Below are positions 17,550-35,112 of a DNA stretch of 64,000 nt, one piece after another (positions within the stretch are counted from its first letter, which is position 1; the number at the start of each line of letters is the position of its first letter). A program made the position numbers and the translations under genes. Source of the DNA: an uncultured Planctomycetia bacterium (GTDB taxonomy: Bacteria; Omnitrophota; Gorgyraeia; 1-14-0-20-64-10); the NCBI GenBank assembly GCA_964373715.1, contig CAYJVR010000001.1, positions 21,164-85,163 on the forward strand, read 5' to 3'. The notes below the pieces were generated by a model. It did not search any database, was not told where the DNA came from, and saw only the letters and a program-made list of their open reading frames with translations.

Positions 17550-17729
17550 ATGGATCGATTGATGACAATAGAAGAGGTCGCGGCCTATATGCAGATAAGC
17601 CGGTTCACTGTTTACCGGCTGGCCAAGGATCGTTCCATCCCGGCGACTAAAATTGGTCGGCAGTGGCGTTTCCATAAAGATGAAATTGACCGATGGATGA
17701 GGGAAAGATGCCAAAGAGATCCCCAATAG
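17550..17729 (+). CDS. Small stand-alone helix-turn-helix protein (excisionase/MerR-like HTH_17 family)
   Basis: 59 aa, MDRLMTIEEVAAYMQISRFTVYRLAKDRSIPATKIGRQWRFHKDEIDRWM. Below the ORF-track size cutoff. Overlaps the next gene by 37 nt in another frame. Confidence 0.55.
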   Translation: MDRLMTIEEVAAYMQISRFTVYRLAKDRSIPATKIGRQWRFHKDEIDRWMRERCQRDPQ

Positions 17730-19168
17730 TAAAGTCGGATTTTTCTCTCGTGTCCCGGGGGCTCCGAGAGAAAATGATCGTCGCTTTTTGCCTGATGTCG
17801 GTTGTGCCCCTTTTGGTTCTCATTTACATCGTGACGACTTACGCCACCCCGCATCTAAAGACCTGGTGGGATATCGGGATACTGATAGGCATCTCGGCTG
17901 GCATCTCTGTTTTGGGTTTTGTCGTTACCCGTTCGTTTGTTATCCCGGTTGTGAGATTAGCCGAAGAGGCGAAAACGATTGCCGAAGGTAAGGTAGATCA
18001 GCAGGTGGAAGTGACGACCGAAGATGAGATCGGTGCCCTGGGAAAATCGCTTAATGAAATCACGCATAGGGTCAGGGAGAACATGGCCCAGCTGCAGGTC
18101 TACGGCGAGGAGTCGCGCCATCTGCATTTAGAGATCAACCGCCGGATAGTGACGTTTTCAAACCTTCTGCAGGTCAGTAATCTGATTACCCAATCGGCGA
18201 AGGTGGAGGAGATCGTCGCATTTATTCTGGAGAAGCTCAGCCATTTGGAAGAGGTGGAACTCAACCTCTTTCTCGAGCCTTCCAGCAGCCCAGATCTCTT
18301 TGTCGTCCGGATGGCCATGGGCGCGGACCGATCGAAAGCGGATAAGGCCGCGAACGTCTCGGTTTCTCTTCCTTGGCTCCACCGTTGCGCCTCGGAGAGG
18401 AAGATGCTCGTTCTTGACGCCAATACGGGAATCCAGGAGGAAAAGGATCTTTTATGCCGGTATTTCGGCATGCTGAACGCTGTTTGCCAGCCGCTGGTCG
18501 GCATGGGCAAAGTGATCGGGGTCCTGGTATGCGGAAACTCAAAAGAGAACTTTACTTTTGACGATGACTCGCAGGATATCCTGAGGGTTTTTGCGAAACA
18601 GATGGCGATTGCCATTGAGAACGATCTGCTCGTCAATCGGGCTAAGAAGTTGGAGATCCTCGATGATCTGACCGGACTTTACAATGCCCGTTACTCGAAA
18701 AACCGGCTGGAAGAGGAGATCCATCGGTCCATGAGGTTTCACCACCCCTGCTCCCTCATGATCCTGAATATCGATGGTTTCAAGAAGATCCAGGAGCGTC
18801 ATGGCCAGCAGTCGGCGAATAAGATTCTCGTGCGGGCGGCGGACCTGATACGCGGGGAGCTCAGCGATGTGGATCGGGTAGGGCGCATCGGTCCAGATGA
18901 ATTCTGCCTCATTCTTCCGGAGAGAAACAAGCGGGAGGCTATTCAGCTTGCCGAAAGGATCCGCAAGAAGATCGAGACCAGCGTTTTTGTGAAAGAGGGC
19001 CAGAAAATTCCAGAGCCTTTGACGATCTCGGGAGGGATCAGTGAAAATCCTTTGGATGGTTCAACGAGCGATGAGTTATTCAATAAAGCAATGGAGTTAA
19101 TGAAACTGGCCAAAGTGCAGGGGAAGAACAGGATTAACCCCGATCTTCCAGGCCACACCAAGGTGTGA
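17693..19168 (+). CDS. Membrane sensor with 2 TM, HAMP, GAF-like and GGDEF domains. The GGDEF motif is degenerate (GPDEF), so this is probably a c-di-GMP effector or inactive cyclase.
   Basis: TM helices at aa 28-50 and 60-82, a HAMP segment, and a GGDEF fold (DLTGLYNARY...LNIDGFKKIQERHG...RIGPDEFCLILPE). The signature reads G-P-D-E-F at nt 18890-18904. The RxxD I-site position reads SDVD. Confidence 0.8.
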   Translation: MDEGKMPKRSPIVKSDFSLVSRGLREKMIVAFCLMSVVPLLVLIYIVTTYATPHLKTWWDIGILIGISAGISVLGFVVTRSFVIPVVRLAEEAKTIAEGKVDQQVEVTTEDEIGALGKSLNEITHRVRENMAQLQVYGEESRHLHLEINRRIVTFSNLLQVSNLITQSAKVEEIVAFILEKLSHLEEVELNLFLEPSSSPDLFVVRMAMGADRSKADKAANVSVSLPWLHRCASERKMLVLDANTGIQEEKDLLCRYFGMLNAVCQPLVGMGKVIGVLVCGNSKENFTFDDDSQDILRVFAKQMAIAIENDLLVNRAKKLEILDDLTGLYNARYSKNRLEEEIHRSMRFHHPCSLMILNIDGFKKIQERHGQQSANKILVRAADLIRGELSDVDRVGRIGPDEFCLILPERNKREAIQLAERIRKKIETSVFVKEGQKIPEPLTISGGISENPLDGSTSDELFNKAMELMKLAKVQGKNRINPDLPGHTKV

Positions 19169-19181
19169 GGGCTACTAAATT

Positions 19182-20291
19182 ATGGGCGCGACAATCATTA
19201 CTCTGCAAGGAGAGACAGCGTTAAAGCCCCAGATGGAGCAGATGCTGAAGCTGATGGTCGAACGGAGAGCCTCAGACCTCCACCTGACAGTGAATTCCCA
19301 CCCGATGCTGCGTGTGGACGAAGGGTTGATCCCCTTAACCGAGTTTCCGGTTTTTTCCGGCGAAGACACGAGAGTTTTTGCCTACAGCCTGTTATTACCC
19401 GAGCAGAAAAAAATGTTCGAAACCAATAGAGAGCTCGACATCTCGTTTGGCGTCAGCGGCATGGGCCGCTTTCGCGTTAACGTTTTTCTCCAGAGGGGAT
19501 CGGTGAGCGTGGCTCTGCGGCTTTTACCGGCAGAAATACGAACATTTGAGCAATGCGGCCTGCCCGGAAAAATCATGGAAGAACTGTGCCGGAGAAAGAG
19601 GGGACTGATCCTGATTACCGGTTCCACTGGGAGCGGAAAATCCACCACGATGGCTTCGATGGTCGAGTGGATCAACAGCAACCGCAGTTGCCACATTATT
19701 ACGGTGGAGGACCCGATCGAGTACGTTTATAAGAATAAAAAAGCGATTGTCGACCAGCGGGAGGTAGGGATGGACACCCATTCTTTCGGCAACGCTTTAA
19801 AGCATATGCTTCGGGAAGACCCCAATGTGATCCTGATCGGAGAAATGCGCGACCTCGAGACGATTGAGTCGGCTCTCAACATCGCGGAAACAGGGCACCT
19901 TGTGCTGGCGACCCTGCACACGAACGACGCTGTCCAGACGGTGAACCGCATCGTGGATGTTTTTCCCTCTCACCAGCAGCAGCAGGTGCGCGTCCAGCTT
20001 TCCTTCGTTTTGCTGGCGGTTATGACCCAGCAGCTGATTCCAAAAGCGGGTGGAATGGGCCGCGTTCTCGGGATAGAAATCCTGATGGCCAATCCGGCTG
20101 TCCGCTCGCTGATCCGTGAAGGGAAAGCGCACCAGATTTATTCGGTGATCCAGACCAGCCATCGGGAAGGGATGAGGACGATGAACCACTCGTTGGCCGA
20201 GATGCATGTCCGAGGTGACGTCTCCTATGAAGAGGCCTTGGGGCGCTCATCCGATCCGGAGGAATTCCTGCGTTTGATTCATCACAAATAA
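19182..20291 (+). CDS. pilT: Type IV pilus retraction ATPase PilT
   Basis: 369 aa. Walker A GSTGSGKST, Asp box, His box (ATLHTNDA), and the PilT-family AIRNLIREGK-like motif. Confidence 0.9.
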   Translation: MGATIITLQGETALKPQMEQMLKLMVERRASDLHLTVNSHPMLRVDEGLIPLTEFPVFSGEDTRVFAYSLLLPEQKKMFETNRELDISFGVSGMGRFRVNVFLQRGSVSVALRLLPAEIRTFEQCGLPGKIMEELCRRKRGLILITGSTGSGKSTTMASMVEWINSNRSCHIITVEDPIEYVYKNKKAIVDQREVGMDTHSFGNALKHMLREDPNVILIGEMRDLETIESALNIAETGHLVLATLHTNDAVQTVNRIVDVFPSHQQQQVRVQLSFVLLAVMTQQLIPKAGGMGRVLGIEILMANPAVRSLIREGKAHQIYSVIQTSHREGMRTMNHSLAEMHVRGDVSYEEALGRSSDPEEFLRLIHHK

Positions 20292-20328
20292 AGAACCGAA
20301 GGGTAAGCCATGTCGCTGCGGGGGATGG

Positions 20329-20763
20329 ATGATAGCAAAAAAATTGGGCGAACTCCTGGTGGAGCGGAAAGTGATCTCCCCGGAGCAATTAAGCGAGGCA
20401 TTTAAAATTCAGCAGGAGAAGGGCGGCTTGCTGGGGCAGATCCTCGTTGAGCTTGGCTATTCCACGGAGGAGGCTGTCGCCCAAGCGCTTACCGCCCAAT
20501 ACGGTTTCCCGTACCTTCCGCTGAAACATTACGCCATTGACAATGAACTCTTAATCCTTATCCCGGAGAACGTCGCGAAGCAGTATTGTCTGATCCCCGT
20601 CGATAGGATTGGCAACACTCTCACGGTGGCGATGGCGGATCCGTTGAACGCGAAGGCGGTTGAAGACATCGAGATGCTCAGCCGCTGTTCCGTGCAGGTG
20701 TTTGTGACTACGATGAGCGATGTCATTGAGGCGATCGGGCGTTGTTATGGAGCCAAGCCATGA
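20329..20763 (+). CDS. Stand-alone MshEN / GspE-N-terminal (T2SSE_N) domain protein, a putative c-di-GMP receptor
   Basis: 144 aa. KKLGELLVERKVISPEQLSEAFKIQQ and LLGQILVELGYSTEEAVAQALTAQ resemble the two 24-residue MshEN c-di-GMP-binding motifs (RLGxxLVxxGxIxxxxLxxALxxQ). Ends in an ATGA overlap with pilB. Confidence 0.7.
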   Translation: MIAKKLGELLVERKVISPEQLSEAFKIQQEKGGLLGQILVELGYSTEEAVAQALTAQYGFPYLPLKHYAIDNELLILIPENVAKQYCLIPVDRIGNTLTVAMADPLNAKAVEDIEMLSRCSVQVFVTTMSDVIEAIGRCYGAKP

Positions 20764-22496
20764 CCAAACCGGACCCCTTGCAGAAAGCTTCCATGGGGAT
20801 CAGCGAGCGGCTTGCTGGAGTTCTTTTGAGCGAAAAACTTCTCAAGAAGGAGGATATCGAGAAGGCGTTGGCCCTTCAGCGGGAAAAGGGAGGATCTTTA
20901 AGCCAGGTTCTGATCGAGATGGGATTGGTGGAGGCCAAGGCCCTCGCGGCGGTTTTAAGCCGCACACTTCATATACCGATTATAAGTCTCTCAAAAATGG
21001 AATTGGATCCCGACATGGCGAAGCTGATTTCCCGGAAGTTGGCCATCCATTACCAAATTATTCCGGTTTCCCTCATGGGGAAACAGCTCACCGTGGTGAT
21101 GGCCGATCCGATGAATATCCTCGCGCTGGACCATCTCAGCCAGGCGACCGGAATGATCCTGACCCCTTTGATTACCACGCAGGAGGAGGTTCAAGACGCG
21201 CTCAACAGGTTATACGGAGGGGTCATCGCCGATACTCTGCAGGAACTTCAAGGAGGGCCTGTTTCTATCGAGGTTCTTGCCGAGAGGAAAGAGTCCAGCG
21301 GGTCGGAACAGGTCGAGGATCTGATCCGGTTGACAAAGGAAGGTCCTGTTGTTCGGATCACGAACGCGATCCTGACGGAAGGGGTGACTTTGAAGGCAAG
21401 CGATATATTGATCGAACCCTTTGAAAGGCGCCTTCGGATCCGTTACCGGGTCGATGGGGTCTTCCGGGAAGGGCAGTCGCTGCCTCCGGCGATGCATGCT
21501 GGTGTCGTATCGAGGATAAAAGTGATGTCGAACCTGAACATCGCCGAGCACCGTTTGCCGCAGGATGGGCGGATTAAATTCTCAGTGGCGAGTCGGGGTG
21601 TCGATTTCCGCGTTTCTGTCATCCCCACCTATTATGGTGAAAAAGTCTGTCTTCGGATCCTCGATAAGAGCCAAGTAAGGCTCGATGTGGACAAGCTGGG
21701 TTTCGATCCTGAGCCTTTGAGGGTTCTAAAGAAGGCGATGATGCACCCGCACGGGATGGTTTTGATCACCGGGCCGACCGGTTCCGGGAAAACAACGACT
21801 CTTTACGGACTGCTCAGCTTGGTGGATCGGCCGGAAAAGAATCTCGTGACTGTTGAGGATCCGGTGGAATACGACCTGCCGGGGATCAACCAGGTAGCCG
21901 TGCGTTCCGAAATCGGGCTGACCTTCGCTACGGTTTTGCGTTCCATCCTCCGGCAGGACCCGAATGTCATCATGATCGGCGAGATACGGGATGAAGAGAC
22001 GGCAGATATCGCGGTCAAGGCGGCTTTAACCGGGCACCTCGTACTTTCCACACTGCACACGAACGATGCGATCGGTGCGGTGGCCCGGTTGGCCAACATG
22101 GGGATCGAGCCTTATTTGATCGCCTCCTGCGTTCTTTTAGTCGGGGCGCAGAGGCTGCCTCGCCGCGTCTGTCCGCGCTGCAAGCAGCCGGTCCGGCATT
22201 CGAGAGAGCTTCTTGAGCGGATGGCGCTGCCTCTCGATGGCAGTTACATGAAGGGGAAGGGATGCGTCGAATGCCGCAGTACCGGGTTGGCCGGCCGTAT
22301 CGGCCTGCTTGAGGCTGTTCCGATCACCTCGGACCTGCGAAGATTGGTTGACCAGGGGGCTTCTTCCGTTAAGTTGCAGGGGGCTGCTCGGGCTGCCGGC
22401 TTTTATTCGCTCAGAGATTATGCGGTGGCAAAGGCAGTGGCAGGTTTGATCCCTCTGGAAGAGGTGGCCCGCACAACGGTTGGATTTCAAGAATAA
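20760..22496 (+). CDS. pilB: Type IV pilus assembly (extension) ATPase PilB/GspE, copy 1
   Basis: N-terminal GspE_N domain, Walker A GPTGSGKTT, Asp and His boxes, and a tetracysteine Zn motif (CPRC...CVEC). Confidence 0.9.
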   Translation: MTKPDPLQKASMGISERLAGVLLSEKLLKKEDIEKALALQREKGGSLSQVLIEMGLVEAKALAAVLSRTLHIPIISLSKMELDPDMAKLISRKLAIHYQIIPVSLMGKQLTVVMADPMNILALDHLSQATGMILTPLITTQEEVQDALNRLYGGVIADTLQELQGGPVSIEVLAERKESSGSEQVEDLIRLTKEGPVVRITNAILTEGVTLKASDILIEPFERRLRIRYRVDGVFREGQSLPPAMHAGVVSRIKVMSNLNIAEHRLPQDGRIKFSVASRGVDFRVSVIPTYYGEKVCLRILDKSQVRLDVDKLGFDPEPLRVLKKAMMHPHGMVLITGPTGSGKTTTLYGLLSLVDRPEKNLVTVEDPVEYDLPGINQVAVRSEIGLTFATVLRSILRQDPNVIMIGEIRDEETADIAVKAALTGHLVLSTLHTNDAIGAVARLANMGIEPYLIASCVLLVGAQRLPRRVCPRCKQPVRHSRELLERMALPLDGSYMKGKGCVECRSTGLAGRIGLLEAVPITSDLRRLVDQGASSVKLQGAARAAGFYSLRDYAVAKAVAGLIPLEEVARTTVGFQE

Positions 22497-22497
22497 G

Positions 22498-24225
22498 ATG
22501 GCAAACTCATTAAGACAGAAAGTCGTAGATCTCCTTGTCGAGACGTGCGGAGTGGACCGGGAGAAGCTGGAAACCGCGCTGAAATCGCCCAAGGCGAGGG
22601 AGAAGACCCTCAGCCAACTTCTGGTGGAGGAGGGTTTGGTCAGCCAGCAGGACCTTCTCGCCACGCTCGCCGAAGGACTTCACCTGCCGCCGATCAATTT
22701 GGCCCGCTATCAGATTGATCCAGCCCTCTCTGAAGTAATCCCTGAAAGGATGGCCCGCCAATACAGGGTTGTACCCGTTTCCCGGATCGGCAACCGATTG
22801 TCGGTGGCGATGGCCGATCCGATGAATATTTTGGCCTTGGATGATCTGGCGATGACGACCTTGCTCGACATCAGCCCTGTCATCGCGGCGGAAAGGGATG
22901 TGGATCAGGCTATCCAAAAGCTGTATCATCCCGGCTTCTCTCCGGAGGCTTTGAACACCGGTTCCCAGGCTGAATTTATGGGCGGTTCGGAGGAGATGGA
23001 GGAGGAATCCGATTCAGAAGAGGATGTCGTGGATCTGACCGCCTTCGGCATGGCCGGCCAAAAAGCTCCGATCGTTAAGGTGGTGGATATGATGATCATT
23101 GAAGCCTTGAAGGCGCGCGCCAGCGATATCCATGTCGAACCCTATGAGAAAGATATCAGAATCCGGTATCGGGTGGACGGTTCCTTGATAGAGGTTTTTC
23201 GCCTGCCGAAGAGGCACCAGAGCGCTCTCGTCACGCGCTTAAAGATCCTTTCCAAGCTGGACATCACGGAGAACCGACTCCCGCAGGATGGGCGTTTTAA
23301 AGTCCGTTCGGAGAACAGGGAGGTGGACTTCCGCGTTTCCGTGCTTCCGATCTCCTTTGGGAATAAGGTTGTCATGCGCGTGCTGGACAAAGGCAATCTC
23401 TCGGTGGGATTGGAAAAGCTGGGACTGCTGCCGGAGTCCCGCGCCGTTTTTGAGAAGGCGGTTGCCCGGCCCTACGGCATGCTTCTGATCACGGGTCCGA
23501 CGGGAAGCGGGAAATCCACGACCCTCTATTCCGTGTTAGCCCAGATGAATCAGCCGGTCCGAAACATTATGACGATCGAGGACCCGGTGGAGTACCAGGT
23601 GGAGGGTATCACGCAGGTCCAGGTCAACCCGGAGATCGGGCTGACTTTTCCCTCCACGCTGAGGTCATTTCTCCGGCAGGCTCCTGATGTGGTTTTTGTG
23701 GGTGAGATAAGGGACGGCGAAACGGCCGATATCGCGATCAAGGCCTCTCTCACCGGGCAGGTTGTCCTCTCGACTCTTCACACGAATGACGCCTCCAGCT
23801 CCATCACCCGGCTTATAGATATGGGGGTGGATCCCTTCCTGCTGGCTTCCAGCCTTATTTTTGTGGCCGCCCAGCGTTTGTGCCGCCAGGTCTGCCCTCG
23901 GTGCAAAATCCCCGAACAGGTGCCGCCGGAGCGCCTTAAAGCGGCGGGCCTGAAGCTGGAGAAGAACCAGCTCCTTTACAAAGGGCAGGGCTGCAGCTAT
24001 TGCCGTCAAACAGGATTTAGGGGACGCTTCGCTATTTTAGAGGCGATGCTGGTGGACGACGCGATCCGGGAGATGATTATCGCTCGAAAGTCATCCGATG
24101 AGATTAAAACATATGCCGTGGAACGCGGGATGAGAACGCTTCGGCAGGAAGGGCTGGTTCATCTGCTGGATGGCCGGACCAGCTTTGATGAGGTGCAGAG
24201 GGTAACCAGCGAAGACGAGGAGTAA
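22498..24225 (+). CDS. Second PilB/GspE-family ATPase paralog (copy 2)
   Basis: Same architecture: GspE_N, Walker A GPTGSGKST, CPRC...CSYC tetracysteine. About 45-50% identical to copy 1 by eye. An alternative ATG at 22480 is possible. Confidence 0.9.
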   Translation: MANSLRQKVVDLLVETCGVDREKLETALKSPKAREKTLSQLLVEEGLVSQQDLLATLAEGLHLPPINLARYQIDPALSEVIPERMARQYRVVPVSRIGNRLSVAMADPMNILALDDLAMTTLLDISPVIAAERDVDQAIQKLYHPGFSPEALNTGSQAEFMGGSEEMEEESDSEEDVVDLTAFGMAGQKAPIVKVVDMMIIEALKARASDIHVEPYEKDIRIRYRVDGSLIEVFRLPKRHQSALVTRLKILSKLDITENRLPQDGRFKVRSENREVDFRVSVLPISFGNKVVMRVLDKGNLSVGLEKLGLLPESRAVFEKAVARPYGMLLITGPTGSGKSTTLYSVLAQMNQPVRNIMTIEDPVEYQVEGITQVQVNPEIGLTFPSTLRSFLRQAPDVVFVGEIRDGETADIAIKASLTGQVVLSTLHTNDASSSITRLIDMGVDPFLLASSLIFVAAQRLCRQVCPRCKIPEQVPPERLKAAGLKLEKNQLLYKGQGCSYCRQTGFRGRFAILEAMLVDDAIREMIIARKSSDEIKTYAVERGMRTLRQEGLVHLLDGRTSFDEVQRVTSEDEE

Positions 24226-24229
24226 AGCG

Positions 24230-25432
24230 ATGCCTGTTTTTGCTTATGTTGCTAAGATGGACGATGGCCGGACGGTGAAAGGCTTTCTGGAGGCCCACTC
24301 CAAGTCAGCGATGCTCGAAACGCTCCACAGGCAGGGGCTCATCGTTCTGGAGGTTAATATCAAGAAAGTCGCCGGTTCGCCCGCGTTCGGCGGGAGGGTA
24401 AAAGCGGATGACCTGGCTATTTTCTCCCGGCAGCTGGCCACCCTCGTGGATGCCGGTATTCCGATCGTCGGCGGTTTAGAGGCGGTCTCGGACCAACTCG
24501 AAAATCCGCAGCTCCGGCAGGTGGTGATCAAGATCTATGAGGCGGTAGAGGGGGGCATGAACCTGACGGCTGCCATTGCCAAGCAGAACGCCGTTTTCTC
24601 CCCTTTGTTCGTCAACATGGTCAGGGCAGGGGAAGCCAGCGGCCATTTGGCCGATGTTTTGGACCGGCTGGCGACTTATCTTGAAAAGAGCGCCGCCCTT
24701 CAGAGGAAAGTCAAATCGGCCTGTATTTATCCGGCGATCGTTATCTCGATGGCTCTGATCATCACCACGCTGCTGATGATCAAAGTGATCCCCGTTTTTA
24801 AACAGATGTTCGAGCAGTTGGATGTGGATCTTCCTCTCCCGACACAGATTCTCATAGCCACGAGCGACCTGATGGCGGCCTTTTTCCTTCCCGGAATCGG
24901 TTTGATCATCGCGGCGGTTTTTCTTTTCCGCCGCCTGATTAAGACGCCCAATGGGCGCCTTTGGTTCCACCGCTTTTTGCTGAAAGCGGTCATTGTCGGG
25001 CCGATCGTTCGGAAGGTCGCGATTGCCAAATTTGCCCGCACCCTTTCCACGCTTGTCAGAAGCGGTGTTCCGATCCTTTTGGCGCTGGAGATTGTTTCCG
25101 AAACGTCGGGGAACCGCGTGGTGGAGCTGGCTGTTCTTCAGGTGAGGGCCTCGATCAAGGAGGGGGAAAATATCGCGGCACCGCTGGCGGCCAGCAAGGT
25201 TTTCCCCCCGCTTGTTGTCCGGATGATTGCCGTGGGGGAGCAGACCGGCCGGCTGGATGACATGCTCACCAAGATTGCCGAGTTTTATGAAGATCAGGCA
25301 GATACGGCAATAGCGGGACTGACTAGCGCCATCGAGCCGTTGATCATTGCCGTTTTAGGTGTTGTGGTGGGAGGCATCGTGATTTCGATCTTCCTGCCGA
25401 TCTTCAAACTGACGCAGGTATTTTCAGGCTAG
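24230..25432 (+). CDS. pilC: Type IV pilus inner-membrane platform protein PilC/GspF
   Basis: 400 aa with two repeated GspF domains and 3 TM segments. Lies directly after the ATPases. Confidence 0.9.
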   Translation: MPVFAYVAKMDDGRTVKGFLEAHSKSAMLETLHRQGLIVLEVNIKKVAGSPAFGGRVKADDLAIFSRQLATLVDAGIPIVGGLEAVSDQLENPQLRQVVIKIYEAVEGGMNLTAAIAKQNAVFSPLFVNMVRAGEASGHLADVLDRLATYLEKSAALQRKVKSACIYPAIVISMALIITTLLMIKVIPVFKQMFEQLDVDLPLPTQILIATSDLMAAFFLPGIGLIIAAVFLFRRLIKTPNGRLWFHRFLLKAVIVGPIVRKVAIAKFARTLSTLVRSGVPILLALEIVSETSGNRVVELAVLQVRASIKEGENIAAPLAASKVFPPLVVRMIAVGEQTGRLDDMLTKIAEFYEDQADTAIAGLTSAIEPLIIAVLGVVVGGIVISIFLPIFKLTQVFSG

Positions 25433-25576
25433 ATTTATAGCCAAATTTTTGTTAATTAACCCCCATTTAATTTCTTTAGAAAAGTCAGGTATACTTCAAA
25501 TCAGAGGTTATTAGATTATTGTAATTCATTAGATATAAATGAGTTGTGTAAAATTCGTAAATGGGAGGATTATAAA
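25433..25576 (+). promoter_or_regulatory. AT-rich (about 25% GC) leader/promoter region of the major pilin gene
   Basis: 144-bp AT-rich gap ending in a GGGAGG RBS 8 nt before the pilin ATG. No clear GG-N10-GC sigma-54 box was seen. Confidence 0.3.
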
Positions 25577-26017: not shown

Positions 26018-26028
26018 ACAGCGGAGAG

Positions 26029-26101
26029 GCGCTAGCTTAACGCTAGCATGCCCAAACATGCAGGGGCGGCGACCCAAAGGTTGCCGCCCCTGCATGTTTG
26101 G
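26029..26101 (+). terminator. Compound stem-loop after the major pilin gene: a 6-bp gctagc hairpin plus a perfect 19-bp-stem hairpin. No T-tract, so it is more likely an attenuator or mRNA-stabilising element.
   Basis: gctagc(26031-36)-ttaac-gctagc(26042-47). Then ccaaacatgcaggggcggc (26052-26070) pairs with gccgcccctgcatgtttgg (26083-26101) around a 12-nt loop. Confidence 0.55.
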
Positions 26102-26119
26102 AGTGGGAAAGGGCGATCC

Positions 26120-26533: not shown

Positions 26534-26535
26534 GA

Positions 26536-27090: not shown

Positions 27091-27127
27091 TTTTGGGTAT
27101 AGTTTTCATAACAAGCGGGGGTGTGCG

Positions 27128-28177: not shown

Positions 28178-28216
28178 GCGGCCGGAGGTTCTTAAGTCCC
28201 GAATGAAAGGAGACCT

Positions 28217-29269
28217 ATGGCTGGAGTATGGATTCGCCTGAAATCACAAAGCGGTTTCATGCTGATCACGATTTACATGATGATTCCGTTGCTGCTTGTG
28301 ATGGTCGGGGCGATTGTGGCCTACGCGTTTTCCGATCTGCACGCCGCCCAGCGGTCGCAGGCGGACATGCAGGCGCTGTACATGGCTGAGGCCGGAATTG
28401 ATGATGCGTTGGTGCAGCTGCGGGACAGTTACAGCTGGACCGGAGGCTCCGGAGTCGGCGCTGGGGGAGAATACTCGGTCACGGTCGAGGATCTCGGCAG
28501 CAGCCGTTTGCGGGTAATGGCTACCGGGATGGCTGACAAACTGCTCGCTGCGGCGGTCAGCCATGCTGTCGAAATCATCGTGGAACAGGCTATCCCGCCG
28601 AATTTCTACGATAACGCGGTTTGGGCTTCGCAGAACCTGGATTTCAAAGGGAACGCGTATTCTGTTGCGGGGGCCGTCCGCCACGGGGATACGACGCCTT
28701 CTTCGACCGGGAACGTCAATGGGTCCGTTACCTACGATCCGGACACCAACCCGTTGCCGCGGCTCGATTTCGAACAGATCTACGAGATTGCGCAGGCGCA
28801 GGGAAATGTCTACGATGCTGCCCGGATTGGCAATGGGCACAATGTTTTTCCGACGTCGTTCTGGTACCAGCAGCCGACCGATCCGACCGACCCGACCACC
28901 GGGGTCCCGAACGTGAACTACATCACGACTGATTTGGTGCTTAACGGCAATATCGGAACGATCGGCGGTTTCTTCGTTGTCGTCGGGGATGTGATTACCG
29001 ATCCCTTCGCTGTCGAGGATACGACGATCAACGGCAACGGACAGGTTGCGGGAGCGATCTATTCCAGGGGGGACTTCCGGGTCACCGGCGGTGGAAATGG
29101 CCTGAACGTCAACGGTAGCGTATGGGCGGGAGACGAAACCCGTTTAAACGGCAAGGTGACAATGACGTACAACTGGGATTACATGCACGCGATAGAGGGG
29201 CTGGGCATCAACCCGGATGTCACCGTTATCTCCTGGCAGGATGGAGGATCGGTCCAAGAGGACGAGTAG
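28217..29269 (+). CDS. PilX_N / GspK-like protein, paralog 2 (recent tandem duplicate of paralog 1)
   Basis: About 70% aa identity to paralog 1. The C-terminal half is nearly identical, and also at the DNA level (for example 27700-27915 versus 28790-29000). Confidence 0.7.
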   Translation: MAGVWIRLKSQSGFMLITIYMMIPLLLVMVGAIVAYAFSDLHAAQRSQADMQALYMAEAGIDDALVQLRDSYSWTGGSGVGAGGEYSVTVEDLGSSRLRVMATGMADKLLAAAVSHAVEIIVEQAIPPNFYDNAVWASQNLDFKGNAYSVAGAVRHGDTTPSSTGNVNGSVTYDPDTNPLPRLDFEQIYEIAQAQGNVYDAARIGNGHNVFPTSFWYQQPTDPTDPTTGVPNVNYITTDLVLNGNIGTIGGFFVVVGDVITDPFAVEDTTINGNGQVAGAIYSRGDFRVTGGGNGLNVNGSVWAGDETRLNGKVTMTYNWDYMHAIEGLGINPDVTVISWQDGGSVQEDE

Positions 29270-29314
29270 CGCTCAAAGAACCCGCCACATAGATTATTTC
29301 GGAGGTGAATCCGG

Positions 29315-30448
29315 GTGTACTCAACGAGGAAAGCCCAAAAAGGGTTTGTTCTGGTCACGATCTACCTGCTGGTCCCGCTGCTGATCATTATGTCGACCAG
29401 CTTGGTCGCTTTCGTGCTCCAGGATATCCGTTCCGCCCAACGGGTTTGGGCGGCCACGGAGGCTTTTTTTCTGGCGGAGGCCGGGATTGACCGGGCTATC
29501 GCGGAGCTCAAAGAGGATGCCGCCTGGACGAGTGGGTTTTCTGAGGAGCCGCTGAACTCGATGGGAACCTACACGGTGACCGTGGAGGATCTCGGCAGCG
29601 GCCGGTTCCGGCTCACGACCGAGGGCAGCAGCGAGCTGCTTTCCGCGCCGGTTGTCAGAACGATCGAAGCGGTTGTGGCGGTGTTTCCGGCCGGCCTGTT
29701 CAATTTCGCCCTCTTCGGCGATGACAGCGTTACGCTGACCGGCAACGCCATGACCGACAGCTATGATTCCTCCGAAGGTTCGTACAATGCGGCGACCGCC
29801 GGTTCCGAAGGAGATGTCGGCACCAACGGGATTGCTGCCGGAAGCATCACGCTGAACGGAAATGCCCGCGTGAAGGGAGATGCGCTGATCGGGTCTGAGG
29901 GGGATCCGGATACCGGCATCACGATGACCGGCAACTCCGTGATCACGGGGATTCAGGGAACCGAGGATGAAGAGAAGGATTTCCCCGAGGTGACGATCCC
30001 TGAGGGGGTTTCCAATGGCGGTTCGTTGAGCGTGTCGGGCAACAAGACCAAGACCTATCCTGCTGGCACCTACTGGTGGTCGAGCATATCGGTTTCCGGC
30101 AACGGTCGGCTGCAGTTTACCGGCCCCGCGGTTGTTTACGTCACCGGCAATGTGAGCATCAGCGGAAACGGGATAAACACCTCAAGCAACCTGCCGACCA
30201 ACCTGCTGATTTTCGTTGCTGGGAACCAGAGCGTCAGCGTTTCGGGCAACGGCAATTTTTACGGCGGGATTTATGCCCCGGACTCCAACGTGCACATTTC
30301 CGGCAACGGCGCTTTTTACGGCGCCGTGATGGGCAAGACAGCGACCAACAACGGCAATGGCGGGGTCCATTACGACACGGCTTTGCGGGACGCCGTTTCC
30401 AGCGATGGTGCCGAAGTCGATATCCTTTCCTGGCGGGATCTTTCCTAA
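29315..30448 (+). CDS. PilX_N-domain protein, paralog 3, with a divergent C-terminus rich in T/SGN repeats (beta-helix-like)
   Basis: GTG start with a GGAGG RBS. N-terminal QKGFVLVTIYLLVPLLIIMSTSLVAFVLQDIRSAQRVWAATEAFFLAEAGIDRAIAEL. C-terminal repeats VTLTGNA / VSGNG / ISGNG. Confidence 0.65.
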   Translation: MYSTRKAQKGFVLVTIYLLVPLLIIMSTSLVAFVLQDIRSAQRVWAATEAFFLAEAGIDRAIAELKEDAAWTSGFSEEPLNSMGTYTVTVEDLGSGRFRLTTEGSSELLSAPVVRTIEAVVAVFPAGLFNFALFGDDSVTLTGNAMTDSYDSSEGSYNAATAGSEGDVGTNGIAAGSITLNGNARVKGDALIGSEGDPDTGITMTGNSVITGIQGTEDEEKDFPEVTIPEGVSNGGSLSVSGNKTKTYPAGTYWWSSISVSGNGRLQFTGPAVVYVTGNVSISGNGINTSSNLPTNLLIFVAGNQSVSVSGNGNFYGGIYAPDSNVHISGNGAFYGAVMGKTATNNGNGGVHYDTALRDAVSSDGAEVDILSWRDLS

Positions 30449-30503
30449 AATACTCCCCTGAAAATTCTCTGAATAAAGTCTAAAGGATTCCGATTATTTC
30501 TGT

Positions 30504-31619
30504 TTGGACTTAGGCCTATTCTGCGGTAGAATTCAGACCAAGGTGCCTAATCCACTTCTAGCGCAGATAAAAGCCTTGCCGACCCGTTGGGCAGGCGTAG
30601 GAAAGTTGGTTCACCGTTCAACAGCCTGCATCGGTTTGGATGTCGGTTCTTTTTCCCTCAAAGCCCTTCTTGTTTCCGGTTCTTCCGCGGTTCCCCGGCT
30701 CAAGCGGATGGCGCTGAAAAGTTTCCCGCCGGGCGCTGATCAGCGGCAAAAGGCCGAGATCATCCGGTCGGTTGTGAATTCGTTGGATGGCGGCCGGGAA
30801 GTTTCACTTGTGACCGGTGTCGGAGGAGTCGGCACGGTACTCAGGTCTGTTTCCCTCCCTGAAATGTCCGAAAAGGAGCTGAAAGCGGCCTTCTCTTTTG
30901 AGGCGGAAAAATATATACCGTTCAAACTGGAGGAGACCTTCTTTGATTCGTGCATTCTAGGGAAGCGGCCGGGTGGGCGCATGGAGGTATTGGTAGCGGC
31001 GGCCAGGAAGGAGCTGGTCAACGCCCATTTGGAATTGTTGTCTGCCGCGGGGGTTACCCCTCATATTGTGGATTTGGAGTCTTTGACGTTGGGCAACGCA
31101 TGGGGGTTTTGCCGCCCGGAAGCCGTCGGGGAATCGATGGTGACGGCCCTTTTGCACGTGGGGGCCAGAGGGACCATCCTGGATTTCTTTGAGGGGTCTC
31201 AGCTGCAGTTTACCCGTGAGATTCCGATCGGAGGGGATTCTTTCACGAAGACGATTGCCGAGAGTCTTCGGCTAAATTCTGCTGAGGCGGAAAAGGTAAA
31301 ATGCCAGCAGGGAGACCGGGCGCCGGAGGTTCGCGCTGCGCTGGAATCTTTGTGGGAAGATTGGCTTGCCCAATGCCGCGTGTCGTTTGATTTCTTTGAG
31401 AACCAGTTTGGCCGCAAGGTAGAGCGGCTTGTGCTCAGCGGCGGGTCTGCCCGGCTTATCGGTTTTAAAGACAAGATACTCCATTCCGTTGGTTTACCCA
31501 CCGATGAATGGAATCCTACAGCCGGGTTTTTATCCGATGTAGATCAGCAGGAACTGGTTTCCGCCGGGTCTTCGCTGGCGGTGGCGGTTGGTTTAGCAAT
31601 TCGTGGAGTTGCCAAATGA
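30504..31619 (+). CDS. pilM: Type IV pilus assembly protein PilM (actin-like)
   Basis: IGLDVGSFSLKALLV ASKHA-fold N-terminus. The true start is probably a non-ATG codon near 30606. Confidence 0.85.
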   Translation: MDLGLFCGRIQTKVPNPLLAQIKALPTRWAGVGKLVHRSTACIGLDVGSFSLKALLVSGSSAVPRLKRMALKSFPPGADQRQKAEIIRSVVNSLDGGREVSLVTGVGGVGTVLRSVSLPEMSEKELKAAFSFEAEKYIPFKLEETFFDSCILGKRPGGRMEVLVAAARKELVNAHLELLSAAGVTPHIVDLESLTLGNAWGFCRPEAVGESMVTALLHVGARGTILDFFEGSQLQFTREIPIGGDSFTKTIAESLRLNSAEAEKVKCQQGDRAPEVRAALESLWEDWLAQCRVSFDFFENQFGRKVERLVLSGGSARLIGFKDKILHSVGLPTDEWNPTAGFLSDVDQQELVSAGSSLAVAVGLAIRGVAK

Positions 31620-31641
31620 GGAGTTTCTTTCGAGGCCGCGC

Positions 31642-32442
31642 ATGATTCGGATCAATCTGCTGCCGTCCGGTGTCCGCAAGTCAAGATCCCCCCTTCGAGT
31701 CAGCGTTCCTTGGTTGGAGATTCTTATCCTCATCGTTGCGGTTACGGCTGTTTATTCGGGATGGATTCTGGTTTCTTCCCAGGTTCAAGGAAGGAAACTC
31801 AAGAGGTTGACGGACCAATGGGAGAAGATGAAATCCGAACGGACGAAGGTTGAAACAACGGAAGCGGCTCTGCGTGCTTTTGAGAACAGGGAAGCGATCC
31901 TTAAAGAGATTAAATCGCCTCAGTCCCAGTGGGCGCCTCGCCTGAATATCCTGGCGGATTCCATCGTTGCAAAACTTTGGTTTACTTCACTGGAATATAA
32001 GCCTGAAGAGGCTTCTGACGAAGATGCAGAGGGAGGGAAGAAGAAGCGGGTTAAGCGCAAGAGTGGGGACAAAGCAGGGGAGTCGCCCCAGGCCAGTAAG
32101 AAGGCTGAGTCAAAGAAAAAGAAGAAGAAAGAATCTTCCAAAAGATCGGGTAAAGAATCCGCGGGCAAAGAGGGAAAGTCAAAAAAACCTTCGTCCCGGC
32201 AGGGCCAAGGGCAGGCGGTAGCCAGCGTCCCGCCTCCCGCGCTTATCTTAAAGGGCGCCTCTTTTGTGGCCGAGCAGGGAAATGGAGCGGCCGTTAACAG
32301 GTACATCCAGAATCTGGAGCAGCACCCCGATTTTAAGCTCCTCTTTAAAGGACTGAAATTGAAAACAATCGAACATCGGCAGATCCAAAAGGAGGAGGTT
32401 TCCGATTTTACTCTTGAGCTGTATCTCAAAGGCGGCAAATGA
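31642..32442 (+). CDS. pilN: Type IV pilus assembly protein PilN, with a lysine-rich low-complexity insertion
   Basis: MIRINLLP N-terminal PilN motif plus a TM helix. There is an about 65-aa K/S/E-rich insert (nt about 32005-32205). Confidence 0.8.
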   Translation: MIRINLLPSGVRKSRSPLRVSVPWLEILILIVAVTAVYSGWILVSSQVQGRKLKRLTDQWEKMKSERTKVETTEAALRAFENREAILKEIKSPQSQWAPRLNILADSIVAKLWFTSLEYKPEEASDEDAEGGKKKRVKRKSGDKAGESPQASKKAESKKKKKKESSKRSGKESAGKEGKSKKPSSRQGQGQAVASVPPPALILKGASFVAEQGNGAAVNRYIQNLEQHPDFKLLFKGLKLKTIEHRQIQKEEVSDFTLELYLKGGK

Positions 32443-33035
32443 TGCTTAATCTGAAGCTTCCTTTGCTCGAGGGGAAAGAGTGGAAAGCGATCGTTGCCGG
32501 CGCGGGGATTGTGGTGGGGCTGTTTGTCTGGTTGCAGCTCTTCATCATCCCGCAGCGCAGCAGTTTAATGGACAGCTGTTCTCGAAATAAAACGATTGTG
32601 AAAGATATGGCCCTTCTTAAGGAGAAGATTGCCAAGTTTCCGGAGATGGAGAAACAGTTGATCCAGTTGGCGGGCCAGTACGACCCCCGGATGGTAACGA
32701 CCCCTCCGGAGAAGCAGCTGCCTGAGATTCTCGAAGTGATTGCTCAGGCCGCGAAAGCATCGGATGTCCGCCTGCTGGGCGCGAAGCCGAGGATGGAGAT
32801 CAGCGATCTTTCTCCCGGCTCATCCGGTTTCTTGGAGCTTCCTGTTCAAGTGGATGCCTCCGGAGGGTATCATCAATTGGGTCTTTTCTTGGATTCTTTG
32901 GAGAGTTCGAGGATGCTTGTGCGTGTGCATGAGTTAAAGATACAGACCAACCCGGAAGATATATGGCATCATCAGGCAACATTCGTTCTCTGGACCTATC
33001 TGTTCCCTGTAGTAGGAGACCAGTCAAAATCGTGA
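32439..33035 (+). CDS. pilO: Type IV pilus assembly protein PilO
   Basis: 198 aa, N-terminal TM and coiled coil. ATGA overlap with pilN. Sits in the pilMNOPQ order. Confidence 0.8.
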   Translation: MMLNLKLPLLEGKEWKAIVAGAGIVVGLFVWLQLFIIPQRSSLMDSCSRNKTIVKDMALLKEKIAKFPEMEKQLIQLAGQYDPRMVTTPPEKQLPEILEVIAQAAKASDVRLLGAKPRMEISDLSPGSSGFLELPVQVDASGGYHQLGLFLDSLESSRMLVRVHELKIQTNPEDIWHHQATFVLWTYLFPVVGDQSKS

Positions 33036-33418
33036 GGAGAGTTCTTGCTGCGGCACTAGTTTTTTGCTCGTGCGCAGGTTTTCTGTCTGTTCAGCCGGCG
33101 TTCGCAGAATACCTCCCGAAAGGGAAAAGGGATCCGTTTGTCCTTTTGATTACCCCGGATGGGCAGAAGGTTTATCCCCCCGGTTTGGATGAGGAAGTGG
33201 CCGCCAGGGTGGACAGCTTCGCTCTTCAGGGGATTGTTTTTGATCCGAACGGAGATTCTTTTGCTGTGATCAACGGCGAGGTTGTCCATGAAGATGACGA
33301 GCTGGATGGGATAATAATCTTGAAGATAGACCCGGACATGGTGACGGTGCTGGTGGACGGCAAAGAAGACCAGCTTACCCTCAGCCAGCCAATAAAGGAG
33401 AATGAGACAGAGCCATGA
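33032..33418 (+). CDS. pilP: Type IV pilus assembly protein PilP (signal-peptide/lipoprotein-like)
   Basis: GTG start overlapping the pilO stop. Signal peptide VRRVLAAALVFCSCAGF, then a PilP-like beta domain. Confidence 0.65.
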   Translation: MRRVLAAALVFCSCAGFLSVQPAFAEYLPKGKRDPFVLLITPDGQKVYPPGLDEEVAARVDSFALQGIVFDPNGDSFAVINGEVVHEDDELDGIIILKIDPDMVTVLVDGKEDQLTLSQPIKENETEP

Positions 33419-35112
33419 GGTCAAACCTTGGTTGGAGAACGACAGTGTTTTTCGTGTGCGGTGCGGTGATTCTCGTGCAGGTCGAGCCGTTTGTCCGGAT
33501 GGCGGACGCCGACTCTGAAACGAACCAGCATGAGAGATCCAAGGTGGCCTCGTTAAGCCTGCAGGCTTCTGATGGAACTCCGGTTCCGGATAACCTGATA
33601 ACGCTTGATTTTAAGGAAGCGGACGTCCAGGTAGTCCTTCAAGCTTTGGCTAAAAAAGCGAGTATAAATATCGTCACGGCGTCCGATGTCACAGGGGCTG
33701 TCAGTCTTCACCTGAAGGATGTCACGCTGGAACAGGCGCTCGATACGATCGCCAAGACCTATGGTTTCGGCTATGAGAAGGACGGCAACGTGGTGCTGGT
33801 TTCCACCTTGGAAGAGTTAAAGGCGCGGCGTGAAACGATGAAGGACCTGGTGGAGATTGAGCCGGTGGTCACCAAAATCATTGAGCTCAGGTACATTGAC
33901 GCCGCCGACGCGCAGGATTTTCTTGAGCCTCAGCTGACCGCCCGCGGGCGAATTTCCGTCTTGGAAATAACCGGGCAAAAGGGATGGGCTTTCGGGACGG
34001 CCAAGCTGGGTAAGACCACGGATGACAAGCAGCGTAAACGGATACAGAGGGAGTCGGCCCGGTCCAAGGTGATTGTGATTACCGACACCCCGACGACCAT
34101 TGACCGTTTGGAGAGGATTTTGGCGAAGGTGGATGTCCTTCCGAAACAGATCCTCATCGAAACGCGCGTGATGGAGGTCAGCCGGGATTTGCTGCGCGAT
34201 ATTGATTTGGGCGCTGTGACCGGAGCAACCGCGGGAAGTTCTACGCTCACCGTGAGCAACCAGCCCGCCGCTAAGCAGGGCGGCACCTCAATCTCTGAAT
34301 TTGCGGGGACCCTTCTGCAGAGTTCCTTCACCCCGTCGACCTTTAACCCCGCCACGACAGGGCTGACCGCCGCGACGGCCGGGGCGCAGGTTTTCTTTCA
34401 GCAGTTGCGCGGGACGCAATTCTCCGCTTTGCTCCGGCTCTTAGAAGAGGATGTGCGCACAAACACGCTTTCCGCGCCGAATATCCTGACTCTTTCGGGC
34501 CAGGAAGCGAGAATCTTGGTCGGAGAGAAATACCCGATCCTAAAGACAGAAGTCGCCGGAACCTCGACGACGACCACCACGACAAGCCTGGATTACTACC
34601 AGAACATCGGTATTGAATTGTTCGTGGTTCCTTCGATAGGCGGTGAGGAACATGTGAGCATGCTGGTCCATCCGATTATTTCCACACGGGTCGGAACGGT
34701 CGGGACGAACGCTTACCCCATCATCAACACCCGTGAGGCTGAGACCCAGGTTGTCCTCGAGAAGGGGGATACGATCGTGATCGGCGGGTTGCTCAAGGAT
34801 CTCAAGGCCAAGTCAAGGATCGGGTTGCCCTTTCTTGGCAAGTTACCTCTTATAGGGCCTTTGTTTGCCCGTACCACGGAGGATATCGCTAAAATAGATT
34901 TGTTGATCTTCATAACGGCCAGAGTGATTGAGCCCGGAATGCTTTCTCCCGAAGAGATGGTGAGGCTGCAGCAGCAGTACCAGGAGTTTGTACATGAGCG
35001 GTTGAGCAGGAAAGGTAAACGGCGCCGTTCTGCGCCGGTTGCCTCGGGCGTTGCTTCGTCGGCAGCCACTCCTGTGTCGGGCAATAAGGGAGTTCTTTAC
35101 CAGAAGCCCTAA
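33415..35112 (+). CDS. pilQ: Type IV pilus secretin PilQ
   Basis: 565 aa. Signal peptide, N0/secretin_N-like domains, and a C-terminal secretin domain (VVLEKGDTIVIGGLLKDLKAKSRIGLPFLGKLPLIGPLF). Confidence 0.85.
   Translation: MRSNLGWRTTVFFVCGAVILVQVEPFVRMADADSETNQHERSKVASLSLQASDGTPVPDNLITLDFKEADVQVVLQALAKKASINIVTASDVTGAVSLHLKDVTLEQALDTIAKTYGFGYEKDGNVVLVSTLEELKARRETMKDLVEIEPVVTKIIELRYIDAADAQDFLEPQLTARGRISVLEITGQKGWAFGTAKLGKTTDDKQRKRIQRESARSKVIVITDTPTTIDRLERILAKVDVLPKQILIETRVMEVSRDLLRDIDLGAVTGATAGSSTLTVSNQPAAKQGGTSISEFAGTLLQSSFTPSTFNPATTGLTAATAGAQVFFQQLRGTQFSALLRLLEEDVRTNTLSAPNILTLSGQEARILVGEKYPILKTEVAGTSTTTTTTSLDYYQNIGIELFVVPSIGGEEHVSMLVHPIISTRVGTVGTNAYPIINTREAETQVVLEKGDTIVIGGLLKDLKAKSRIGLPFLGKLPLIGPLFARTTEDIAKIDLLIFITARVIEPGMLSPEEMVRLQQQYQEFVHERLSRKGKRRRSAPVASGVASSAATPVSGNKGVLYQKP

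Follow-up and report, generated by a model that had tools for sequence, protein, structure and literature searches.

Within a stretch of DNA of 64,000 nucleotides (positions 1-64000, referred to throughout as the window), positions 17550-35112 carry a single co-directional run of type IVa pilus (T4aP) genes on the + strand, in which a stand-alone MshEN protein is encoded before both extension motors. This small protein alone keeps the signature of cyclic dimeric guanosine monophosphate (c-di-GMP) binding, and it is this feature that is newly seen here; the rest of the locus is ordinary for the phylum Candidatus Omnitrophota, including its contiguity and the presence of a 'GGDEF' gene. The explanation favored, to which a probability of roughly 55% was assigned, is that a canonical Omnitrophota T4aP locus carries, as its free MshEN protein, an extra PilF-like GSPII sensor of the extension ATPase PilB1, which would be encoded separately and act in trans. 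The window belongs to a Candidatus Omnitrophota metagenome-assembled genome (MAG), and the named homologs of its GGDEF protein, free MshEN protein, and pilin-like paralogs were from Candidatus Omnitrophota/Omnitrophica MAGs.

The run was delimited from a list of open reading frames (ORFs) combined with Pfam and NCBIfam scans. Its order is an HTH_17 protein, a membrane protein with HAMP, GAF, and degenerate GGDEF domains, PilT, the free MshEN protein, PilB1, PilB2, PilC, three prepilins, three pilin-like paralogs (X1, X2, and X3), PilM, PilN, PilO, a gene in the PilP position, and a secretin, with intergenic spacing between -73 and +111 nt. A preliminary description of this DNA had reported a co-directional pilus run of about 17.5 kb containing MshEN and GGDEF domains; the run is borne out by the ORF listing and the Pfam and NCBIfam scans, and both domains were confirmed by hidden Markov model (HMM) searches (PF05157 and NF053729 for MshEN, and the Pfam GGDEF model). 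The motor genes are the following.

19182-20291, + strand: PilT-type retraction ATPase (TIGR01420, 474 bits against a cut-off of 319)
20329-20763, + strand: stand-alone MshEN/GSPII protein of 144 aa (PF05157 over residues 58-142)
20760-22496, + strand: PilB1 extension ATPase (MshEN plus T2SSE; its own MshEN domain complete but degenerate)
22480-24225, + strand: PilB2 extension ATPase paralog (degenerate MshEN plus T2SSE)
24230-25432, + strand: PilC platform protein (two T2SSF domains; below the GspF and PilC equivalog cut-offs)

Related loci were collected by a PilC scan using one genome per species, which yielded 44 loci, 43 of them of the Omnitrophota type (some labeled 'Planctomycetia'). 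Gene order was compared by BLAST-based synteny, and counts are given as the number of loci with a feature over the number of loci covering that position. The invariant unit is a motor module of PilT, free MshEN, PilB1, PilB2, and PilC: the order MshEN-PilB1-PilB2-PilC was present in every locus (35/35), and PilT was located directly upstream of it in 33/35.

Residues 5-57 of the free MshEN protein pass NCBIfam NF053729 ('c-di-GMP_motif'), a curated 53-residue model of the c-di-GMP motif, with 65 bits against a cut-off of 38, whereas PilB1 (36.2) and PilB2 (30.3) remain below that cut-off. When the register was set by hand, the protein was found to consist of two tandem 24-residue motifs (motif I, KLGELLVERKVISPEQLSEAFKIQ; motif II, LLGQILVELGYSTEEAVAQALTAQ) separated by the 5-residue spacer QEKGG and followed by a C-terminal subdomain. 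Its key residues are K5 and L34 at position 1 of the two motifs, G7 and G36 at position 3 (Gly3), and Q28 and Q57 at position 24 (Gln24). Gly3 and Gln24 of both motifs were retained in all of the free MshEN proteins compared (37/37) and in none of the PilB1 (0/37) or PilB2 (0/40) proteins, and position 1 of motif II was Leu in 36 of 37 free MshEN loci. A 22-position motif score separated the three groups weakly (17.1 for free MshEN versus 15.9 and 13.6 for the PilBs); the four key residues and the curated HMM separated free MshEN from the PilBs cleanly.

The consensus given for MshEN in PMC5013675 is RLGxxL(L/V/I)xxG(L/V/I/F)(L/V/I)xxxxLxxxLxxQ. It was widened by Neissner et al. 2024 (PMC11731258) to allow R/K/L at position 1, (R/K/L)LGxx...Q, because the GSPII-B domain of Thermus PilF, which has Lys in motif I, Leu in motif II, and no arginine, binds c-di-GMP at 6 nM; the same study held that the K/L replacement predicts very high affinity and found that Gln-to-Glu mutation of the terminal Gln residues abolishes binding by GSPII-B. 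Asp104 of the free MshEN protein, which was invariant in 35 aligned orthologs, aligns with the Asp of the 'SDPR' stretch of PilF GSPII-B, and is taken to be the predicted counterpart of the guanine-contacting Asp described in PMC11731258, as judged from the adjacent Arg268.

Conservation of the free MshEN protein was compared with that of its neighbors. A total of 120 orthologs with 71-100% identity shared 36 invariant columns, and the median identity to the window across loci was 60% for free MshEN, the same as for PilT, 50-51% for the PilBs, and 37% for the degenerate GGDEF protein. In all 35 loci the protein was encoded by a separate ORF of 144-169 aa. A scan of 1.8 billion representative proteins returned many stand-alone MshEN proteins of ~150 aa, and in a sample of ten the named ones were Omnitrophota entries annotated as 'hypothetical protein'. 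Metagenome proteins of ~1300 aa with 5-7 tandem MshEN domains were also observed (P0243, P0249, P0278, P0288, P0311, and P0320). Judged from motif retention and loss, the free MshEN protein is probably a conserved high-affinity c-di-GMP receptor, and it probably took over a sensing role lost by both PilBs.

PilB1 and PilB2 are 42% identical to each other, and both carry the catalytic motifs (Walker A and B, Asp and His boxes), the T2SSE domain, and two CxxC pairs, the Walker B motif of PilB1 (VIMIGEIRD) having been read by eye. TIGR02538 scored 604 bits on PilB1 and 629 bits on PilB2, below its cut-off of 675.65, and the GspE model scored close to these values (568 and 581 bits, respectively). 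The Walker A, Asp box, Walker B, His box, and AVRSLIRE motifs were all present in PilT. The most likely partner of the free MshEN protein is predicted to be PilB1, because its stop codon overlaps the PilB1 start by 4 nt, because it is kept in two loci where pilT is not adjacent (L007 and L033), because an extra sensor domain has a precedent in Thermus PilF, and because one relative carries a natural fusion. The fusion protein, P0252 (765 aa; L053, 8001-10298; JGI 3300009514, Ga0129284_10000161), joins a domain like the free MshEN protein (47% identical) through a Gly/Lys/Asn-rich linker of ~35 aa to a full PilB1-like ATPase (49% identical), the inner motif of which is degenerate. Upstream of it on L053 is a gene for a 1792-aa glycoside-hydrolase-like protein, and PilB2, PilC, and a DUF7305 protein come after it. 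The scan of representative proteins also returned many PilBs carrying one to three additional MshEN domains at the N-terminus, some of them from Nitrospirota MAGs.

The closest characterized system is that of Thermus thermophilus, in which the T4aP/DNA-uptake extension ATPase PilF contains three N-terminal GSPII/MshEN domains (PDB 6f8l and 8pdk; PMC11731258). Among sequence matches of the free MshEN protein in the PDB, the PilF GSPII domains were best (E 5.8e-47 over the three domains), followed by the N-domains of Geobacter and Myxococcus PilB and the MshEN domain of 5HTL; the entries matched included 5htl, 3jc8, 5tsg, and 5zfr. Common to both systems are the arginine-free pattern (Lys opening motif I, Leu opening motif II), a Gln24 in each motif, and the pairing of an additional sensor domain with a PilB whose other GSPII-like domains are non-binding. 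In contrast to PilF, the sensor in Omnitrophota is a separate polypeptide, fused only in P0252 of L053, so that it is not PilF-type by architecture; tandem PilB paralogs are present, Lys occupies position 10 of motif I in the clade, Leu occupies the position equivalent to Arg268, and binding is a prediction. The domain is the same in Vibrio cholerae MshE (5HTL; PMC5013675), down to the paired 24-residue motifs and the spacer of 5 residues. In MshE and in the PilBs of Myxococcus and Geobacter, unlike here, MshEN is the covalent N-terminus of the ATPase. The MshEN domain partners given in the available text of PMC5013675 include REC, HD-GYP, CheA, CheX, and others, and that text describes no conserved stand-alone protein in a pil operon.

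Several points weigh against a c-di-GMP receptor acting on PilB1. In 19/37 loci motif I begins with Gln, a residue that the published R/K/L set does not contain, and position 10 of motif I, Gly in the consensus, is Lys (Lys14) in the window and in 105/121 close orthologs. The AlphaFold2 model of the protein was poor (pLDDT 55.7, from a shallow alignment of 35 sequences that were 70-89% identical) and agreed with the MshEN fold in secondary-structure order only. The fusion was observed on a single contig and contains a low-complexity linker, so that it could result from read-through or from an assembly or sequencing artefact, and the adjacency of free MshEN to pilT in 33/35 loci would be compatible with a PilT-directed role as well. 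No active diguanylate cyclase was found with the family HMM in the window or in the flanks of ~45 related loci, and the favored reading rests wholly on sequence. Position 10 of motif I is Gly in 27/37 of the more distant loci, and it is Asn in Myxococcus PilB, which is reported to bind c-di-GMP (review PMC11656802). A further link to c-di-GMP, in favor of the receptor reading, is seen in L007, a more distant Omnitrophota lineage without a pilT next to the module: there an apparently intact REC-HD-GYP gene (15556-16626), whose HD and HHExxDGxGYP motifs are both kept, lies between PilB2 and PilC.

The GGDEF gene of the cluster is located at the start of the run, as listed below.

17343-17549, + strand: intergenic region after rodA (207 nt, the largest gap of the run)
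17550-17729, + strand: HTH_17 (excisionase/MerR-like) DNA-binding protein of 59 aa (PF12728, E 3.6e-19)
17708-19168 (alternative start 17693), + strand: membrane protein with HAMP, GAF_2, and GGDEF domains (Pfam)

The start at 17708 is that of the 486-aa gene call in identical contigs. The HTH_17 gene overlaps the start of the GGDEF gene by 22 nt and was found 5' of it only in the closest relatives, L006/L009 and L008. The N-terminus of the GGDEF protein reads as two transmembrane segments with a loop of ~8 residues between them, and this short loop would place the sensing of its input signal either within the membrane or at the cytoplasmic GAF domain. The active site (A-site) of the window protein is GPDEF instead of GG[DE]EF; in 121 orthologs the second position was Gly in 9 and Asp, Pro, or any of a wide range of residues in the others. 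The 25 commonest variants, which account for 113 of the 121 sequences, include neither GGDEF nor GGEEF. The guanine-binding positions, presumably equivalent to N335 and D344 of PleD and set by alignment to other active cyclases, are occupied by Gln367 and Asn376 in the window and by Q/R/H and E/D, respectively, across the family. The inhibitory site (I-site; RxxD, five residues before the A-site) is replaced by SDVD in the window and by [T/S][E/D][V/I]D across the family.

Within the protein, conservation is nevertheless highest in the GGDEF domain (51% identity to the window sequence on average across the 121 orthologs), which should therefore have some function. The gene was present in 22/32 loci, was missing from the other 10 although these keep the motor module, and occurs in one large clade only. 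The protein is predicted to be a dead cyclase without an I-site that is dispensable in many lineages. Because of the family-wide degenerate A-site, the changed guanine residues, and the lack of RxxD, it is unlikely to be a source of c-di-GMP, and it is likewise unlikely to be a classical receptor. A search with the family HMM for other GGDEF genes, confined to the window and ~50 related loci, returned the cluster gene only. The preliminary description had placed the c-di-GMP components between pilT and pilB; this holds for the MshEN gene, and the GGDEF gene lies upstream of pilT. Its broader claim that the locus is tied to c-di-GMP is plausible for the free MshEN protein, on the evidence of NF053729 and the key residues kept in 37/37, and does not extend to the GGDEF protein, which is degenerate and absent from 10/32 loci.

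A degenerate GGDEF protein tied to control of the pilus motor has a parallel in FimX, a degenerate GGDEF-EAL protein that controls PilB through FimX/PilZ-PilB regulation in Pseudomonas and Xanthomonas (review PMC11656802). The GDSIF sequence of FimX has Asp at the second position, as do many members of the present family (GDNEF, GDDEF). In contrast, the Omnitrophota protein lacks the EAL domain by which FimX binds c-di-GMP, and no PilZ partner was observed; the protein is also membrane-anchored, with HAMP and GAF domains, and missing from a third of related loci.

Four other explanations of the locus were weighed. In the first, which takes up the extension/retraction switch proposed in the preliminary description, the degenerate GGDEF protein makes or binds c-di-GMP and forms with the free MshEN protein a dedicated local circuit that toggles between PilB extension and PilT retraction. 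The GGDEF gene lies 13 nt from pilT and co-occurs with the module in 22/32 loci, MshEN is placed between pilT and pilB1 in 33/35, and the protein retains the Mg-binding Asp, the D/N-E-F of the motif, and the C-terminal Lys. SGDEF, a variant reported to be active elsewhere, is found in four of the orthologs. However, the second A-site Gly is absent in 112/121 sequences and replaced by many residues, which indicates relaxed constraint, the N335 equivalent has become Q/R/H, the D344 equivalent E/D, and RxxD [T/S]xxD. Ten of 32 loci keep PilT-MshEN-PilB1-PilB2-PilC without the GGDEF gene, MshEN persists without an adjacent pilT in L007 and L033, and its fusion to PilB1 in L053 suggests that its partner is the extension motor and speaks against a toggle between PilB and PilT; a circuit of this kind was considered quite improbable. 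If, alternatively, the free MshEN protein were a ligand-independent N1-domain adaptor or decoy that vied with the N-domains of the PilBs at the PilM/PilC platform or linked them, for example choosing between PilB1 and PilB2 or helping PilT, which has no N1 domain, to dock, then the motif deviations (Lys at position 10 in the clade, Gln at position 1 in 19/37 loci) and the lack of a cyclase nearby would be accommodated. N1 domains of GspE in type II secretion systems (T2SS) dock on GspL, which also counts in its favor. Thermus GSPII-A is an example of such a domain that does not bind c-di-GMP (PMC11731258). Such an adaptor appears rather unlikely: Gly3 and Gln24 are invariant in 37/37 and decayed in both PilBs, a pattern hard to explain without selection on the ligand site, the protein passes the curated NF053729 model, and an intact HD-GYP gene lies inside the L007 module.

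It was also considered whether the locus is mainly a secretion or DNA-uptake machine, similar to a T2SS or to the Thermus DNA translocator, with PilBs that power different outputs and ComZ-like DNA receptors at the tip. PilB1, PilB2, and PilC score nearly as well on GspE/GspF models, all below equivalog cut-offs; ComZ, a competence pilin that binds DNA, is the closest structural match of X1; the tandem pair of extension ATPases is conserved; and pilus/secretion genes flank loci of giant proteins and carbohydrate-active enzymes in Omnitrophota (preprint 10.64898/2026.06.07.730766; L053). Against this, PilT and PilM pass T4aP models and are accompanied by PilN and PilO, and the PilQ model outscores GspD on the secretin. 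GspC and GspM were not found among the genes of the locus, and a weak secondary T2SSL match on PilM is the only trace of GspL; on these grounds T2SS identity was rated unlikely. The ComZ match has a low TM-score (0.21) driven by the generic beta-solenoid. A secretion or uptake machine, which would be compatible with the c-di-GMP reading, was likewise considered quite improbable. The last explanation treats the free MshEN ORF as a product of annotation error or as a fragment of a split pilB in decay, without a function of its own. The overlap of its stop with the PilB1 start and the one relative with both parts fused could be cited for it, but it is effectively refuted by conservation: a separate ORF of 144-169 aa occurs in 35/35 loci, 120 orthologs at 71-100% identity share 36 invariant columns, the protein is more conserved than the PilBs, and PilB1 has a complete MshEN domain of its own.

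The favored reading, that of a separately encoded PilF-like sensor of PilB1, builds on the observed gene content, synteny, retention and loss of motifs, and single fusion. Ligand binding, partner, and direction of regulation would then be as follows. The free MshEN protein would bind c-di-GMP with high affinity, given the K/L pattern shared with Thermus PilF GSPII-B and the invariant Gly3 and Gln24, and would pass the signal in trans to the extension motor, most likely by attaching itself to the PilB1 hexamer or to the N-terminal ring of that hexamer. In PilB1 and PilB2 themselves, the MshEN domains would presumably be structural or serve only in docking to the platform. The degenerate GGDEF protein would most likely be a signal transducer or scaffold, acting through protein contact or by binding another nucleotide, rather than supplying c-di-GMP. 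The fibre and the envelope conduit would be built by the pilins, the ComZ-like beta-solenoid tip pilins, and PilMNO(P)Q, and the likely role of the pilus, given proposals for the phylum, would be attachment to host or prey cells. A more specific version, which is tentative, holds that the free MshEN protein loads onto PilB1 or arbitrates among PilB1, PilB2, and PilT, that c-di-GMP controls attachment phylum-wide, and that the dead GGDEF protein feeds membrane or GAF signals into the motor by contact.

The contiguity of the locus had been described as unusual, a view that does not stand, since the same gene order was found again in ~40 related MAGs and T4aP clusters are known for nearly all Omnitrophota, with a proposed role in host or prey attachment (Seymour et al. 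2023, PMC10066038). Where at least 8 kb of flank was covered, PilM to PilQ followed downstream in 14/15 loci; pbp2 was located upstream in 26/30, and rng followed the secretin in 8 of the 18 loci having PilQ. Myxococcus likewise has its pil genes grouped together. Because the same order recurs among related loci, the 17.5-kb contiguity is the common state in the phylum, and the locus is the canonical T4aP locus of Candidatus Omnitrophota, with a contiguity that is ordinary there. In L015, L019, L023, and L024 no pilin or PilM-Q match was found 3' of PilC within the flank covered, and their fibre and envelope genes must lie elsewhere. In the two of these that were checked, PilC is followed by unrelated housekeeping genes, with glmU-like, aconitase-family, and isopropylmalate dehydrogenase genes and genes for fatty-acid oxidation, a patatin, and a hybrid histidine kinase among those 3' of PilC in L019/L024. 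The T4aP clusters of PMC10066038 are the same system as the window locus; the terms 'pilt', 'ggdef', and 'c-di-gmp' have 0 occurrences in that paper, and MshEN is not mentioned. In the literature searched, no paper tying Omnitrophota pili to c-di-GMP was found. An F-type 'symbiotic' ATPase, reported near many Omnitrophota T4aP loci (PMC10066038), was not detected in the window by Pfam scans.

The pilin genes follow PilC directly.

25544-26017, + strand: major pilin pilA (N_methyl, TIGR02532; GFTLVE; probable internal start MHTLNRKNSKG/FTLVE)
26048-26533, + strand: minor prepilin (GFTLIE; N_methyl)
26473-27090, + strand: minor prepilin (GFTLME; N_methyl)
27128-30448 (X1-X2 27128-29269), + strand: pilin-like paralogs X1, X2, and X3 (GF N-termini, Thr instead of Glu at +5)

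A second major-pilin paralog (39512-39979, + strand; N_methyl, GFTLVE), 54% identical to pilA, is located 4.4 kb 3' of the cluster, after rng and a TPR/Peptidase_MA gene. A role of pilA as a conductive 'e-pilin' was rejected, as the mature pilin contains ~7% aromatic residues by count from the sequence, below a quoted threshold of 9.8%. X1 and X2 are 64% identical and form a tandem duplicate, and X3 shares with them only the first ~147 aa, as determined by BLAST. Three PilX/GspK-like paralogs had been described at this position; their GF N-termini are prepilin-like but lack Glu5, and no PilX match was above threshold. X1 and X2 had no Pfam match above threshold, and X3 matched DUF7305 and, weakly, PilX_N (E 0.015). 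The AlphaFold2 model of X1, built with 59 Omnitrophota homologs (pLDDT 90.8), comprises a long N-terminal helix and a four-stranded sheet, as in the pilin fold, followed by a beta-solenoid. X2 and X3 are inferred to share this fold and beta-solenoid head from their similarity to X1. The best PDB match of the X1 model by Foldseek was ComZ (6qvi; E 3.5e-5, probability 0.99, TM-score 0.21), followed by ice-binding beta-solenoids. Thermus ComZ, a tip pilin associated with competence, carries an inserted beta-solenoid, and like it the modeled X1 joins a pilin N-terminal helix and sheet to a beta-solenoid; X1 shares 12% sequence identity with ComZ, and, as a further difference, three paralogs are present here. 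On the basis of the model, X1-X3 are best described as putative tip-type minor pilins with a beta-solenoid head, for which an adhesin or DNA-receptor role is possible. This region is the most variable part of the cluster between genomes (L009 has two longer, DUF4900-type copies of 434-435 aa), and it turns over quickly.

The run ends with the alignment and secretin genes.

30504-31619, + strand: PilM (PilM_2; TIGR01175, 170 bits against 133)
31603-32442, + strand: PilN (24.0 against a cut-off of 22.8)
32439-33035, + strand: PilO (46.6 against a cut-off of 22)
32963-33418, + strand: PilP-position protein (assigned by position only; weak T2SSB/CdsD_C matches, no PilP Pfam match)
33415-35112, + strand: secretin (STN/N0, one Secretin_N, and Secretin domains; no AMIN)

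For the PilMNOPQ set of the preliminary description, the PilM, PilN, PilO, and secretin domains were thus recovered, and PilP is placed by position only, in a slot between PilO and the secretin that is conserved in related loci. Residues ~135-215 of PilN form a Lys/Ser/Glu-rich low-complexity insert of ~80 aa (e.g., KKKRVKRKSGDK...SKKKKKKESSKRSGKE), which by reading of the translation sits between the N-terminal transmembrane/coiled-coil region and the PilN domain. TIGR02515 (PilQ) was the best-scoring secretin model for the secretin, above GspD, with 244 bits, below its cut-off of 284.

The 207-nt gap 5' of the HTH_17 gene is likely the promoter region of the cluster. Scans of the cluster for consensus promoters and terminators gave counts that were not above those of shuffled sequence and were uninformative on operon structure, and the repeats in the two larger gaps of the cluster were trivial. 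No Rfam family reached the gathering threshold across the whole 64 kb. A c-di-GMP riboswitch or other RNA element in the 207-nt leader or 5' of pilA was rejected, as the sole Rfam match with E<=1 in 17200-26100 was a meaningless one of 21 bits. Upstream of the cluster are mreB-mreC-mreD-pbp2-rodA (11995-17342), and downstream are mgtE, a 98-aa ORF, and rng (36864-38369 on the rng side). The genes further 3' are rng, a TPR-peptidase gene, the pilin paralog, obg, proB/A, nadD, argS, mfd, surA, pdxA, ksgA, gatA/B, and others. Most related genomes (loci L006-L052) have the pilus cluster in this same place, with mreBCD-pbp2-rodA on one side and rng on the other. In E. coli the mre genes and rng adjoin each other, and the pilus locus looks like an old insertion into this cell-shape gene neighborhood. 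Almost all genes of the window are on the + strand, and the cumulative GC skew climbs monotonically throughout. The Mfd-like protein (48003-49952; UvrB_inter, CarD_TRCF_RID, DEAD, and Helicase_C domains) has, as its ORF is delimited here, just 649 aa, compared with ~1100 aa for a typical Mfd. Pfam scans of ORFs of sufficient size, several short ORFs having been left unscanned, agree with the earlier statement that no pilD, pilR/S, or pilY1 is present in the window, the remaining larger ORFs being housekeeping genes. No A24 peptidase was found among window ORFs of a size suitable for the prepilin peptidase PilD, which may be encoded elsewhere in the genome. The LysM domain expected of a TsaP-like protein was not seen in the window Pfam scans, although no search aimed at tsaP was made.

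Omnitrophota are widespread, uncultured, and ultra-small, and have been proposed to be predators or parasites that attach to hosts by T4aP. The observed pattern, in which the signature is kept in a small protein and lost in both ATPases and one natural fusion to PilB1 is found, provides a concrete and cheap hypothesis. If true, this would be the first c-di-GMP-sensing domain of a T4P ATPase that works as a separate protein, and it would offer a naturally split arrangement in which to ask how the ATPase is activated when MshEN is occupied; a naturally separated sensor and motor bear on what c-di-GMP binding to the PilB N-terminal domain does. A second messenger would then govern host or prey attachment across a phylum of ultra-small predators or parasites.

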